From: a virus
Lineage: Duplodnaviria > Heunggongvirae > Uroviricota > Caudoviricetes
DNA: 16,457 bases
Virus record (IMG/VR): IMGVR_UViG_2526164603_000008
Direction: 5' to 3' (one strand)
Part shown: positions 9,001-15,000 of the stretch, piece by piece
Position numbering within the stretch: position 1 is the first letter of the stretch
How the letters are laid out: each line of letters starts with the position of its first letter
Program-made: the position numbers

Positions 9001-12000
9001 CAATCATCTTTGCCAGACCACGCTGGGTAAGCGTTGACAGGTTGATGAGTAAATCAGTTTCTGCGCGATCAACGTCACGCTGGGATAGTTTGCTGTAACT
9101 TGTTTGTTCCATTTCTTAAGATTTCCAATAGTGAATAGTTAGTTGAAAGGTATGCGTGGAAACGCATATGGCCTTAGTTGGTCAGATATATTGGGACTCG
9201 CTTTGTCAGCGACGTAGGACGAATGTCCATTGTGAAAATAGCGGTGTTACTTATGCAGCCAGAAGGTTCTTTTTGCTTATTTCAAGCATTTCGCTTGCTT
9301 GATATTTGCCACCAGAAATCTCTTCGATTTTTGATGCGTATTTAGTTTTCCCAAAAAACTCAGTCTTAGGGAGGAAGCCGTTTTTGAGCCACTTATAGAC
9401 AGCCCTTTCGCTAACTCCACAAGCCTTCGCAACTTCAGGGATGCCGACACCTTTAATCGGCTCATCAAGATTTTGCATAGGAATATCCTTTTTCGTACTT
9501 TCAGTACGTATTATGGTTGAACTGAAAGTTTTTGCAAGTGCTTTAGTATCGTACTCATGGTTCAGAATGAAAAAGTGCGCAAAGAATTCGCCCAGCGGCT
9601 AGCGCAAGCCTGTAAAGAAGCTGGTCTTGATGAACATGGTAGGGGAATGGCTATAGCCCGTGCCCTTTCTCTTTCGTCCAAAGGCGTTAGCAAATGGTTT
9701 AATGCTGAGTCTTTACCGCGTCAGGAAAAAATGAATGCGCTTGCGAAATTTCTAAACGTTGATGTTGTTTGGCTTCAGCACGGCACTTCGTTAAATGGAG
9801 CGAATGATGAAGATACTCTTTCATTTGTTGGCAAATTAAAAAAAGGGTTAGTGCGCGTGGTTGGTGAGGCAATTCTTGGTGTTGATGGTGCCATCGAGAT
9901 GACCGAAGAGCGCGATGGGTGGCTCAAAATTTATAGCGATGATCCAGATGCCTTTGGTCTTCGTGTGAAAGGAGACAGCATGTGGCCCAGAATAAAATCA
10001 GGAGAATATGTACTCATTGAGCCTAACACCAAAGTATTCCCGGGTGATGAGGTGTTTGTCAGAACCGTTGAAGGACACAACATGATTAAGGTTCTTGGCT
10101 ATGACAGAGATGGAGAATACCAATTTACAAGCATTAACCAGGATCACAGGCCTATAACGTTGCCTTATCATCAAGTAGCAAAGGTGGAGTATGTAGCTGG
10201 TATTCTGAAGCAATCTCGCCATCTGGATGACATCGAGGCAAGGGAGTGGCTGAAAAGTTCGTGACTTCATCGTCACATAGCTGGTAACCAGTGGCCTGAA
10301 GAGACGTTTGGGTAAGGAGGATAGATGGCGTTCAATGACCTTGAATATCAAGCAGTAAAAAAAGAAGTTCACCAATTCATTGAAAGCATAAGGCCGCCTG
10401 AACATATCCGCAATGAACTGGATATTGTTTATAGCATCAATGACCAAACGATAGATATCGGCGAACAGCGCCCCGTGTGGCAGGGCAATCCAGGTGAAAC
10501 AAACATCCTGCCATCAGCAAGAATCAAGTACATACGTTCTCTGGATAGATGGAAAATCTATTGGATGCGGAAGGATATGAAATGGCATCAGTACAGTACT
10601 GAACTTTCGCTGACTGATGCGCTTGAGCTTGTGCGTGCTAACCCGGATTGCTGCTTCTTCGGATGAGTGAAGAGACGTTTGGATGATGGATGGTCGCAGA
10701 GATGCGGCCTGATTCTAAAATAGGATATAAAAAATGAGAATACTAGGTGTTAGAGCGGCGCCCAAAGTTACATCTTTTGTTGTATATTGCACTAATGAGT
10801 CTGCACTCAAATGTGTTGATGTTATTAAAATACCTTCGACCTTAGACACACCAGAAAAATTAAAGTATGTGAGAAATAACATCCTCGACATTCTTAATTT
10901 ATATAATGTTGAATTAGCTGCCATACGCGTTACTGAATCAAACTCTGATAATCTTAGCATTGACCGCCTTTATATAGAAGCTGTTATTCAAGAAGCATTT
11001 TCAAGCAGTGATGTAAGAAAATATTACACTATTAGAAAATCTGGCATGAAATCATCATTGAACCTAACAGAGATCGAGTATAAAGAAATATTGAAGTCAC
11101 ACCGCAATATAAATGGAATCGATAATTCTGGTTTTACAACTGAAACAAATGAAGCTGTTTTGGCTGCACTATCTGCGGAGGTAAGGGGATGCTAACTCCA
11201 TACAAAAGAGCTGATGTAGAATTCGAATGGATTAGTGATCTAGAAGAACAGGGTTGTTTTTCAAAAGTATATCTGGCTCATGACAGACACCTAGCTCATG
11301 ACTTGGTGATTAAAGAAATAGAAAAAAAAGAAAACACTAACCACGACGACTACTTTAATGAAGCAAGGCTTCTCTATAAACATGCACATCCAAATATTGT
11401 GCAAGTTCAGTATGCTGCTCAATGTGAGAGCAATATCTATATAGCCATGCCATTTTATCATAATGGTTCGCTAAACCAATTAATGAAAAAAAATAATCTT
11501 ACAAGCAGGGAGATAATACGGTATTCCATTCAATTTTTAAGTGGACTTTATCATATACACTCAAAAGGTCTTATGCATTTTGATATAAAACCTAATAACA
11601 TTATGATATCAAACAGAAATGAGGCCATGCTATCTGACTTTGGATTATCTCAGTTAGTCAATGAGGAATCGAGAGCTGCGCCTGAGTTTGGATATCATTT
11701 TCATGTGCCACCGGAATATTTTTCTTTATCAACAAATGATTATAATTTCACATATGACATATATCAGGCAGGATTAACCATATATAGAATGTGTGTTGGA
11801 CATGATAATTTTGAAAGAGAAAGATCTGCATTTAGCACGATTGAACAACTCAGAGAGTCGATAATTAATGGCTGCTATCCATTAAAAGAGTATCCTCCCC
11901 ATATACATAAAAAATTAATAACAATAGTGAACAAATGCATTCATGTAGATCCAAATGAAAGATATCAATCCGTACTAGATGTACTAAACGATCTCTCAGC

Positions 12001-15000
12001 TATAAGTGATGGCGTTCTTGACTGGCGTCTACAGATGACGAAACCAACTAACGGCACATGCGAATGGCAAAAAAAGTCTGGGGACGCTATACTGTCTATA
12101 GTTTTTGACGCAGAAAATTCGTCTACTACTGGTTTTCGTTTATACGATGATGGGCGGAAAAGGCGTGCTACGAACTTAACAATATCCTCAGGATGTACCC
12201 CTACAAAACTGTATAGGTTATTAAAGGATAACTGATCATGAAAAAGCGCGAGGAAGTAAGCAAGCTGCCTCGCAGACGTGATGCAGCATTAGCGGTTCCC
12301 TACAAAAAAGATGAGTTCATAAGCCCTTCTGATGACAAAAAATTTTCAAAGGCGAAAAGTTTTACATCTACATCTCTAAAAGATAAATACTTTAAAATCT
12401 AGCCCGGCCTCAGCGCCGGGTTTTCTTTGCCTCACGTTCGCCCACCTAAAAAACATAACCAATTGTATTTATTGATGTAACTCGCTAAACCATGCAGTTA
12501 TGATCCCTGCCGCATAACCTTCATCAGCCACATTTTCAAAAATAAATTTCCTTATATATCAGAATCATACTTCGTAGAGTTAATAAATCACCAAAATTCG
12601 TACCAATAGTTCTTGATAATGTCGAACTATTGGTTCATTATTATCGTCGTCAGCAGGACGCATTACTCACCAGGGCGGTGAATATACAACGATTCGAATA
12701 TGAATCTACGGCGCTGACAAAGCGCAATAACCAAAGTGAACTTTGGGGTGTGGTGAAGGGTTCATGGACGGGAATATGTCGCACGTAAAGCGGCGAGGCC
12801 TGCGGGACTATTGCCGAATTGAAGTAGGCCGAAACAGGTCGAAATGGGTCTCCCACCTACCACACCACCAAAGTTCATCAGGAGGTCTATATGACACGCA
12901 GAACTCAGTTCAAAGGCAATTCACGTTCTCGTCGTCGTGAGCGTTTAAAGGCAAAGGCATTAGCTAACGGCGTACTGGCCCGCGAAGAAGCAATAAGTTC
13001 AGAAGTATTACACCGCCCTACTCTAAGCAGAGCGCAGATTCAGGCTAAAGGTACTCACGAAACGCCTGAGCGCATAGAAGACGCTAAGCCAATTAAGTTC
13101 ATGGCACAGGACGTGATCTGGCAACAGAAAGAATACAGACGCAATCTGGAGCGAGCGGCCATTGTGTACGCGAATGAGTTTGGACATAAGCAACCAGAAA
13201 CTGGTGTATGTCTTCCAAACGTAGCCATTTACGCGGCAGGCTACCGGAAATCAAAACAACTGACGGCGAGGTGACTTGTGTTGGTCGCCAGAAAATGAAA
13301 TTAGGCAGCAAACCACTTATTTGAGGTGAGATATGACAAAATCATGGAGCGTACCTTTTCCTGAATCAGAAACTGAACATGATGGAATGCCTGTTTTCTG
13401 GAGATTCCAGGCGACAGTTGAAGAAGATGGGATAAAAATATTCGCACTTCAATATATAGCTTTTCATCAGACAGAGCATTATGCATGGTTGGTTCCTGCG
13501 CATTGGATTGTTAATTTTAAACCAGCACCAAATCAGTGGTTACAGGAATGGAAACAAAGGAGAAATAGATATGCAATTAAGAAAGTAGCAAAAAATGCAG
13601 AAAGATCTTTTGCATTCCCAACGAAGAAACTTGCCATTGAAAGTTTATTGCGCCGGAAGAAATACCATTTAATGAGAATCAAACAAGATTTGGCTGTTGT
13701 ATCAACTCTTGTTGATGGGATGAAGAATATTGATACATCAATACCAGTGAACCGCCCCGGAAATCCTGGAGACTAAACTCCCTGAGAAAGAGGTAAACAG
13801 GATGACTAAAAATACTCGTTTTTCCCCCGAAGTCCGTCAGCGGGCGATTCGTATGGTTCTGGAAAGTCAGGATGAATATGACTCACAGTGGGCGGCAATT
13901 TGTTCCATTGCCCCAAAGATTGGCTGTACGCCGGAGACTCTGCGTGTCTGGGTTCGCCAGCATGAGCGGGATACCGGGGGCGGTGATGGTGGGCTCACCA
14001 GCGCTGAACGTCAGCGTCTGAAAGAGCTGGAACGTGAAAATCGTGAACTGCGCCGCAGTAACGATATCCTTCGCCAGGCTTCCGCTTATTTTGCGAAGGC
14101 GGAGTTCGACCGCCTCTGGAGAAAATGATGCCACTGCTGGATAAGCTGCGTGAGCAGTACGGGGTCGGACCGGTATGCAGCGAACTGCATATTGCCCCGT
14201 CAACGTATTACCATTGTCAGCAACAGCGACATCATCCGGATAAACGCAGTGCCCGTGCGCAGCACGACGACTGGCTGAAGAGAGAGATACAGCGCGTATA
14301 CGATGAAAATCATCAGGTGTACGGTGTGCGTAAAGTCTGGCGTCAGTTGTTACGGGAAGGAATCAGGGTGGCCAGATGTACAGTGGCACGTCTCATGGCG
14401 GTTATGGGACTTGCCGGTGTTCTCCGGGGTAAAAAGGTCCGTACGACCATCAGCCGGAAAGCCGTTGCCGCAGGCGACCGCGTAAACCGTCAGTTCGTGG
14501 CAGAACGACCTGACCAGCTGTGGGTGGCTGATTTTACTTACGTCAGCACATGGCAGGGCTTCGTCTATGTGGCGTTTATCATTGATGTGTTTGCCGGATA
14601 CATCGTGGGGTGGCGGGTCTCATCGTCTATGGAAACGACATTCGTGCTGGATGCGCTGGAGCAGGCGTTGTGGGCCCGTCGTCCGTCTGGCACCATCCAT
14701 CACAGCGATAAAGGCTCTCAGTATGTGTCACTGGCCTATACGGAGCGACTAAAAGAAGCCGGATTACTGGCATCAACAGGGAGTACAGGCGACTCGTATG
14801 ACAACGCGATGGCTGAGAGCATCAATGGTCTTTACAAAGCGGAGGTAATACACCGTAAGAGCTGGAAAAACCGTGCAGAAGTGGAACTGGCCACACTAAC
14901 GTGGGTGGACTGGTATAACAATCGACGATTGCTGGGAAGGCTGGGCCATACTCCTCCGGCAGAAGCAGAAAAAGCTTATTATGCTTCCATCGGAAACGAT

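Follow-up and report, generated by a model that had tools for sequence, protein, structure and literature searches.

The accessory operon in the immunity region of phage 933W, found here within a 16,457-nt stretch of Caudoviricetes DNA (the window), probably encodes a coupled abortive-infection unit of three proteins, A, Stk and C, in which A and C would regulate the kinase and/or sense its trigger. The core of this finding is already known. Because the locus is 100% identical to that of 933W, it amounts to a published one, and the exclusion function of Stk has been in print since 2011. To our knowledge, there has been no mechanistic follow-up of the Stk system. The new part is that the two genes on either side of the kinase are putative fixed partners of it in many bacteria, and they are probably needed to explain how Stk stays silent in lysogens and how HK97 is recognized.

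An accessory operon between cI and N

Positions 10265-12500 of the window match phage 933W (AF125520, NC_000924) with 100% nucleotide identity over 2236 nt, as do 38 other phage records over the same length. The annotation of NC_000924 agrees with the locus gene for gene at cI, stk, tM and N, and the map order is cro on the minus strand, cI on the plus strand, the DUF3024 gene, A, stk (gene B), C, tM, nutL and N (Table 1). A preliminary description had suggested possible kinship of the kinase with 933W Stk; it is the same gene with the same neighbours and no sequence difference. Other features reported there also hold, namely three same-strand ORFs of 153, 348 and 54 aa, which lie at 10734-12402, and a block that is AT-richer than its flanks, with a GC content of 35.5% for the cassette vs 48.4% for the remaining window. 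The lowest GC content among equal-sized windows elsewhere in the stretch is 43.1%. The clean terminator said to end the block is the annotated tM, a hairpin whose stem has 8 pairs (6 G-C), followed by a T run, and this segment is common to many lambdoid phages.

The block had also been placed directly downstream of cI, in the slot equivalent to that of rexAB. The strand, the downstream location and the rexAB-like position between cI and N all stand, but the word directly does not, as the DUF3024 gene intervenes and had been overlooked. Mosaicism is known to concentrate in the cI-N interval, where other Stx phages carry different cargo between the same flanks, a HigB toxin gene among it. The lysogenic pRM transcript starts with cI and is predicted to continue as cI-DUF3024-A-stk-C up to its end at tM. 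The terminator scan returned no terminator-like site on the plus strand from cI to 12401, and consensus matches for internal promoters were no commoner than in shuffled sequence. Co-transcription of stk with cI is stated in PMC3564112, which cites Tyler 2004.

Table 1. Features of the cI-N interval and its borders, in window coordinates
Feature	Coordinates	Strand	Size or sequence	Remarks
cI repressor	9557..10264	+		Pfam HTH_3 and Peptidase_S24; annotated cI in NC_000924; context
Direct repeat, left copy	10297..10311	+	15 bp, TGAAGAGACGTTTGG	flanks DUF3024 gene
DUF3024 gene (933W L0084)	10325..10666	+	113 aa	between cI and cassette
Direct repeat, right copy	10668..10682	+	15 bp	at homology breakpoint of other Stx phages
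Gene A (933W L0083)	10734..11195	+	153 aa	directly upstream of stk
stk (gene B)	11189..12235	+	348 aa	100% identical to 933W stk
Stk C-terminal beta-rich domain	12023-12232	+	residues ~279-348	conserved
Gene C (933W L0081)	12238..12402	+	54 aa	Lys/Arg-rich; third gene of operon
Terminator tM	12401..12432 (scan: 12401-12422)	+		terminator scan; annotated tM in NC_000924
N antiterminator	12891..13274	+		Pfam N_peptide 2e-15; annotated; far edge of cI-N variable slot

The intervening gene is a separate, independent moron that lies outside the kinase cassette. Its product matches Pfam DUF3024 (1e-30) and the PADLOC defence candidate PDC-S43 (4e-41), and a search of the literature found no description of it. 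The gene is flanked by direct repeats, of which an exact 14-mer occurs twice in the window vs 0 times expected by chance, and homology with other Stx phages breaks at window position 10690 (query position 426). Many Stx2a phages and Salmonella ST160 have only the DUF3024 segment in common with the locus, while the cassette loci of Klebsiella and Morganella lack the gene; one Proteus prophage has the same order, cI-DUF3024-A-B-C-N. Since it is shared or missing independently of the cassette, the DUF3024 gene was ruled out as a member of the module.

The kinase and its two neighbours

Stk was described beforehand as a full Hanks-type kinase, and this is borne out by a Pfam Pkinase match (E 2e-46, residues 21-260; kinase domain ~21-270) and by a complete set of Hanks-type catalytic motifs. 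In an alignment of 34 relatives, residues K42, E58, H130-F-D132, K134, N137, D150-F-G, P175-E176, D190 and R258 are invariant. The AlphaFold2 model of Stk (pLDDT 88.5) ends in four beta strands and a helix, which form a C-terminal domain whose W279 and W293 are invariant in the family alignment. Sequence-profile searches of Pfam and PDB with this domain gave chance-level matches only. According to published work, Stk is a eukaryote-like prophage tyrosine kinase that is activated by HK97 infection and aborts it, and uninfected cells have little Stk activity. Such low activity fits a built-in inhibitor. The idea of a kinase-triggered exclusion module, put forward from the window's sequence alone, gains support from the identity with 933W and from this published abortion of HK97.

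The product of gene A is modelled with high confidence (AlphaFold2, pLDDT 92) as a RuvC / RNase H-like fold, with Thermus thermophilus RuvC as a Foldseek match (4ld0, E 1e-9, TM 0.80). Sequence identity between A and RuvC is 14-18%. A falls below both curated RuvC cut-offs (14.2 bits vs 22.2 for PF02075, and 12.5 vs 163 for NF000711), and a profile of the A family searched against PDB by sequence retrieved no RuvC, only chance-level matches. The RuvC tetrad (D7, E66, D138 and D141 in E. coli) is not intact in A, which has Arg at the D7 position. Arg is found at position 7 of A in 120 of 121 family representatives, and its alignment to D7 comes from a weak hhalign match (E 0.046). By an approximate mapping, R/K65 of A falls beside E66 in the alignment, E68 follows three residues further on, and the last helix holds a single acidic residue, E140. 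Across the 121 representatives R7, R47, R78, E82 and E87 show little or no variation, position 65 is R or K in every one, and E68, E82, E87 and E140 are near-invariant. Based on the weak hhalign match and the fold topology, the first catalytic Asp of RuvC is predicted to be replaced by Arg in A. It is possible that A has a non-canonical nuclease activity, given its four invariant glutamates. The C-terminal domain of TEFM, a RuvC-fold pseudonuclease, offers a parallel, as TEFM is also among the Foldseek matches of A.

The last 7 nt of A are also the first 7 nt of stk, and the 3' end of A contains a GGAGG Shine-Dalgarno sequence, in keeping with the overlap and translational coupling proposed at the outset. 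The 54-aa Lys-rich peptide, at first only a possible gene, is a real one, as its conservation shows. Of 31 loci from four phyla, 29 have an ORF of 51-65 aa in its place, starting -29 to +20 nt from the kinase stop, and the counterparts share an N-terminal MKK, an Arg motif that does not vary and an aromatic motif at the C-terminus. The product of C matches phrog_4063. The partner ORFs and the C-terminal extension of the kinase had been called unassigned and remain so in PADLOC, Pfam and NCBIfam, where no match exceeded threshold. No description of genes A and C, or mention of the extension, was found in the literature. CapK/CapS, which came up as a literature match, is unrelated and has an anti-sigma-type kinase.

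Conservation of the A-stk-C unit

In each of 36 loci, which come from four phyla, gene A lies directly upstream of a kinase of the Stk type, and the conserved unit spans Proteobacteria, Bacteroidota and Firmicutes. For 26 of 27 loci the A-kinase junction falls between -8 and +3 nt. Pairwise identities of A correlate with those of B (r = 0.88), and A diverges among linked loci down to 27% identity. A search of 1.84 billion representatives gave 449 representatives of the A family, which is small. Nearly all A relatives stand alone, at a length of about 150-165 aa, and no A-kinase fusion was seen among the best 150. On this comparative evidence, A appears to be an obligate upstream partner of the kinase, and A and C would both be fixed partners that are as conserved as the kinase itself. 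The A-kinase linkage, the Arg-substituted RuvC fold of A and the conserved gene C all appear to be undescribed in the searchable literature. In the accessible text on 933W, Stk is presented as a single protein, whereas the loci compared here place it in the middle of three genes that stay together across phyla.

The cassette occurs in prophage immunity regions downstream of unrelated repressors, and also outside them, between tail genes, beside integrases and in integrase islands. Its neighbours include Wadjet, Abi_2 with an integrase, and LlaJI restriction-modification with ArdA. In every case the setting is a prophage or a defence island.

Mechanism and alternatives

The operon would be transcribed with cI in the lysogen, and its transcript would end at tM. 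In the published account, Stk is nearly silent until HK97 infection turns it on, after which cell proteins become tyrosine-phosphorylated and the infection is aborted. The identity of Stk and its HK97-abortive role are established by the sequence match and the literature; the roles of its partners are proposed here. The A and C subunits may restrain the kinase in a latent state and/or detect its trigger, with the C-terminal domain of Stk as the likely docking site. Most likely, A would retain a dimeric RuvC scaffold that binds DNA junctions without cleaving them, and it could report the recombination intermediates of the invading phage, or its recombinase. The trigger of Stk is reportedly gp41 of HK97, and HK97 gene 41 encodes an Erf-type annealing protein (erf), as judged from gene order in the HK97 record. 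Consistent with self-compatibility, the recombination genes of carrier prophages are of the Bet, RecT or RecE type and not of the Erf type. A bolder and quite tentative form of the model is that Stk, a RuvC-fold pseudonuclease sensor and a basic peptide form a three-component immune kinase complex in at least four phyla, which detects phage recombination machinery or branched DNA (e.g., Erf-type annealing proteins) and responds with promiscuous protein phosphorylation.

Some resemblance to known systems can be seen at each level. Like lambda RexAB, the cassette maps between cI and N, follows the logic of expression from the lysogenic promoter and aborts infection by a heterologous phage. However, RexAB consists of a sensor and a membrane channel, whereas the 933W cassette encodes a soluble kinase together with a small peptide and a partner of RuvC fold, and none of the four proteins matched a Rex family in Pfam, NCBIfam, PHROG or PADLOC. 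Stk matches the PADLOC PD-T4-6 model PDLC04042 (1e-37, residues 20-273) as well as more than 20 further PD-T4-6 models. With PD-T4-6 and staphylococcal Stk2 it shares a Hanks kinase and the concept that a phage protein switches the kinase on and the kinase then shuts down the cell. Both of these are modelled as single genes, and the single-gene definition of PD-T4-6 (PADLOC / Vassallo 2022) leaves Stk residues ~277-348 unmatched and does not include the flanking A and C. When the full Stk model is searched with Foldseek, AMPK alpha chains come out best, with alignments of 370-400 columns that run past the kinase domain, and the shared idea would be a kinase whose C-terminal beta domain docks two regulatory partners. 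However, the rmsd is ~23 Å and kinase-only matches reach TM-scores at least as good, so that this modelled resemblance is a weak lead and not demonstrated homology.

It is also conceivable, if rather unlikely, that Stk acts alone and that A and C are passengers which share its transcript and have a function of their own (e.g., in recombination or anti-recombination). Autophosphorylation of the purified kinase in vitro reportedly needs no partner. Published work names Stk only, and in PADLOC one gene makes up the system of the related PD-T4-6 kinases. If stk alone on a plasmid excludes HK97, then A and C are dispensable for the exclusion phenotype. Set against this are the invariable position of A beside the kinase with start/stop overlap, the retention of C, and the small size of an A family made up almost entirely of stand-alone proteins; the persistence of the A-kinase linkage despite the divergence of A argues against passenger genes.

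Two further readings take defence to be less than the main role, and we give both less weight than the coupled A-Stk-C abortive-infection unit. The cassette could be an addiction module resembling a toxin-antitoxin system, with the kinase as toxin and A and/or C as antitoxin, so that stabilization of the prophage or island comes first and exclusion is secondary. This is improbable, even though the tight translational coupling, the silence of the kinase in uninfected cells and the HigB toxin gene in the same slot of other Stx phages would suit it, as would the precedent of HipBST and other tripartite toxin-antitoxin systems built around a kinase. A phage-specific trigger and abortive infection are demonstrated in published work, Pfam and NCBIfam detected no DNA-binding autoregulator domain in A or C, and expression of the cassette in prophages comes from the repressor promoter and not from an autoregulated one of its own. 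Least probable of all, and very much so, is that the module steers the lysogeny-lysis decision of its own prophage, as the KKP kinase-phosphatase of Pf phages does. Its site beside cI in the immunity region and its expression with cI are compatible with such a role, but the cassette is also found outside immunity regions, near tail, integrase, Wadjet, restriction-modification and Abi genes, and it has no phosphatase partner.

The cassette is present in 225 of 5426 complete E. coli genomes (~4%), mostly in the Stx prophages of O157-type strains, and could therefore affect phage growth. It could shape the range of phages that grow on O157-type pathogens, therapeutic or Stx-transducing phages among them. 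The whole cassette was found in 224 of 226 E. coli records.

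Identity with phage 933W and layout of the locus

The locus is the known Stk system of 933W, the Stx phage whose published kinase excludes HK97. The segment 10265-12500 is 100% identical over 2236 nt to 933W (AF125520, NC_000924; 9839-12074, minus strand), and 38 further Stx-phage records also match it at 100%. The order in the 933W record is pM, cI, L0084 (DUF3024), L0083 ("RuvC-like"), stk, L0081 (hypothetical), tM, nutL, and N, and the kinase is therefore 933W stk itself, a closer tie than the family kinship suggested in the preliminary description. According to PMC3564112, stk is transcribed together with cI and encodes a eukaryote-like tyrosine kinase. 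In published work Stk shows little activity until HK97 infects the cell, and its block of HK97 is described as abortive infection. The finding is already known, and the residual interest, which is moderate, lies in the partner genes, A (L0083) and C (L0081). As had been supposed, no account of either was found in the literature searched, where the organisation into three genes, a partner with a RuvC fold, and a conserved peptide likewise went unmentioned; PADLOC has no model for A or C.

The three ORFs lie on one strand as proposed, with A and stk overlapping by 7 nt, a GGAGG ribosome-binding site within gene A, and gene C starting 2 nt past the kinase stop. The AT-richness was borne out by windowed GC, which is 35.5% for the cassette (A-stk-C) against 48.4% for the remaining window, the lowest value of any same-size window outside the cassette being 43.1%; the terminator said to end the block is also present. 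With cI upstream and N downstream, the block therefore occupies the lambda rexAB position, but it does not lie directly downstream of cI, as had been claimed, because the DUF3024 gene intervenes. Lambda RexAB and the 933W Stk locus are alike in position and outcome only, while PD-T4-6 and Stk2 resemble 933W Stk in kinase domain and concept only.

Features of the cassette and its surroundings
Feature	Coordinates	Strand	Remarks
cro		-	upstream of cassette
cI-type repressor	9557-10264	+	HTH_3 + Peptidase_S24
Direct repeat, left copy	10297-10311		TGAAGAGACGTTTGG, 15 bp, exact; flanks DUF3024 gene
DUF3024 gene (933W L0084)	10325-10666	+	113 aa; between cI and cassette
Direct repeat, right copy	10668-10682		as left copy
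Gene A	10734-11195	+	ORF, 153 aa
stk kinase	11189-12235	+	ORF, 348 aa
Gene C	12238-12402	+	ORF, 54 aa
Terminator-like hairpin	12401-12422		with T run
N antiterminator	12891-13274		downstream of cassette

Conservation of the three-gene unit

The gene A family is small, with 75 clusters in a word-indexed search and 449 relatives at E <= 1e-3 among 1.84 billion representatives, nearly all of them stand-alone proteins of 150-165 aa. Neighborhoods were gathered from A relatives, distant kinases, and a one-genome-per-species scan. In 36 of 36 loci the gene immediately after A, on its strand, encodes an Stk-type kinase (~340-352 aa). The spacing between the two genes is -8, -7, -4, -1, or 0 to 3 nt in 26 of 27 loci, and the pairwise identities of A and kinase are correlated (r = 0.88). 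Among the 31 loci with downstream DNA, 29 carry an ORF of 51-65 aa that starts -29 to +20 nt from the kinase stop. Gene finders missed it in several genomes, Kosakonia, Acinetobacter, and Elizabethkingia (L020) among them; in uncalled examples (L014 6477-6638, L018 5062-5235, and others) both ORF and motifs are present. The aligned peptides share an MKK-type N-terminus, an invariant Arg within an [L/P]-x-R motif, and a C-terminal aromatic motif (GYF.WP, FIDFS, KYFKI). What had been a possible 54-aa peptide gene is by this position and these motifs a real gene, and the conserved unit is therefore A, kinase, and C, usually with a terminator at its end. The cassette occurs in 225 of 5426 complete E. 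coli genomes and is whole in 224 of 226 records. The partner genes appear to be obligate in the loci examined.

The hosts fall into four groups, including gamma-, beta-, and alpha-proteobacteria; those in Bacteroidota are Elizabethkingia, Sphingobacterium, Pedobacter, and one Cytophagales genome, and those in Firmicutes are Clostridium carboxidivorans and Lachnoclostridium. In Klebsiella, Morganella (with three different ones), Proteus, Lampropedia, and Acinetobacter, the cassette lies 3' of unrelated prophage repressors; it is also found amid prophage tail genes, adjoining integrases, and next to Wadjet JetC/JetD, Abi_2, or a LlaJI-type restriction system with ArdA. Such surroundings are typical for defence cargo. 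In Sessilibacter and Photobacterium (L028 2100-3857; L031 1327-3006, 6481-8448) its neighbors include large, uncharacterised ORFs that resemble ATPases or helicases and look like candidate further defence genes.

Predicted structures and a possible mechanism

The predicted structure of gene A (pLDDT 92) best matches RuvC resolvases (T. thermophilus RuvC, E 1e-9, TM 0.80, 14-18% identity), with RuvC-fold pseudonucleases such as TEFM ranking lower. Judged by sequence, gene A falls outside RuvC: it reaches 14.2 bits with Pfam RuvC, for which the cut-off is 22.2, and a PDB search with the family profile found no RuvC. A weak hhalign alignment (E 0.046) to E. coli RuvC sets MRILGVR on IILGID, thereby pairing R7 with catalytic D7 and I64-R65 with I-E66. 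Across 121 diverse representatives, position 7 is Arg in 120 and position 65 is Arg in 96 and Lys in 25; R47, R78, E82, and E87 are each present in all 121, E68 in 119, and E140 in 115, with Asp in 4 more. Gene A shares the resolvase fold with altered active-site residues, the canonical two-metal site being missing and a different invariant Arg/Glu constellation retained. It is most simply read as a pseudonuclease with the RuvC scaffold preserved, although A may have a non-canonical activity.

In the predicted Stk structure (pLDDT 88.5), residues 130-137 (window 11576-11599) hold an HFD motif, which is non-RD, and a catalytic loop of the Ser/Thr type, DIKPNN. In a kinase published as acting on tyrosine, this suggests that it has dual specificity or recognises its substrates in an unusual way. 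A small domain at residues 279-348 is modelled with confidence as four β-strands and a helix, with invariant W279 and W293; it has no sequence match in Pfam or PDB, in keeping with the extension having been called unassigned. Matches to the PADLOC PD-T4-6 and mad6 models are confined to the kinase domain. Foldseek with the whole model places AMPK alpha chains at the top, aligned past the kinase domain at an rmsd of ~23 Å, a predicted resemblance that is only a lead.

It is established that the locus is that of 933W, that it has a published exclusion phenotype, that A and C are conserved and coupled, and that A has a RuvC fold with changed active-site residues; beyond this, we infer that A, the kinase, and C function jointly. 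A and/or C may keep the kinase latent, and A and/or C may relay the trigger, probably via the kinase C-terminal domain. The main rival is that Stk acts alone with A and C as passengers, against which their universal linkage speaks. The HK97 records offer a clue to the signal. Friedman et al. 2011 reportedly found HK97 gp41 to be needed for Stk activation. HK97 records place gene 41, an Erf-type annealing protein, between gene 40 and genes 42/42.1; by this position erf is gene 41, and the reported trigger would therefore be an Erf-type annealing protein. Were gp41 the trigger, a RuvC scaffold that binds junctions would be well suited to sensing the recombinase or the DNA it produces. In a small sample of carrier prophages, the recombination systems are of Bet, RecT, or RecE type and not Erf, which would keep these prophages from triggering the kinase themselves. 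The erf product (L047, AF069529 24175-24780; also L046) bears the label 'Gp40' in the original HK97 record, duplicating the neighboring gene 40.

The cI-N interval and the DUF3024 gene

Between cI and N lies a recognised mosaic hotspot. In the phage collection, homology of many Stx2a phages is limited to positions 1-426 of the query (window 10265-12500), the DUF3024 segment; the DUF3024 gene is the only common part in Salmonella ST160 and SW-70, and the terminator segment the only common part in many lambdoid phages. WGPS9-type Stx phages (H43-H47, e.g., NC_049923 4930-6491) retain both flanks, with a transcriptional regulator, a hypothetical gene, and a HigB-family toxin replacing DUF3024 and the cassette; these genes are alternative cargo of the same hotspot.

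The 14-mer core of the repeat flanking the DUF3024 gene occurs twice against 0 expected, and the right copy coincides with the breakpoint where homology to many Stx2a phages stops. This arrangement resembles a recombination joint or the insertion of a moron. In PADLOC, the DUF3024 protein hits PDC-S43, a phage-defence candidate, at 4e-41, and no mention of DUF3024 was found in the literature searched. We treat the DUF3024 gene as an independent moron, circulating separately from the cassette in Stx2a phages and in Salmonella ST160 and SW-70. A Proteus penneri prophage (L023 2836-6322) has the 933W order of S24 repressor, DUF3024, A, kinase, C, and N-like protein, at only ~58-69% identity to the 933W proteins, and DUF3024 and the cassette therefore sometimes move jointly.
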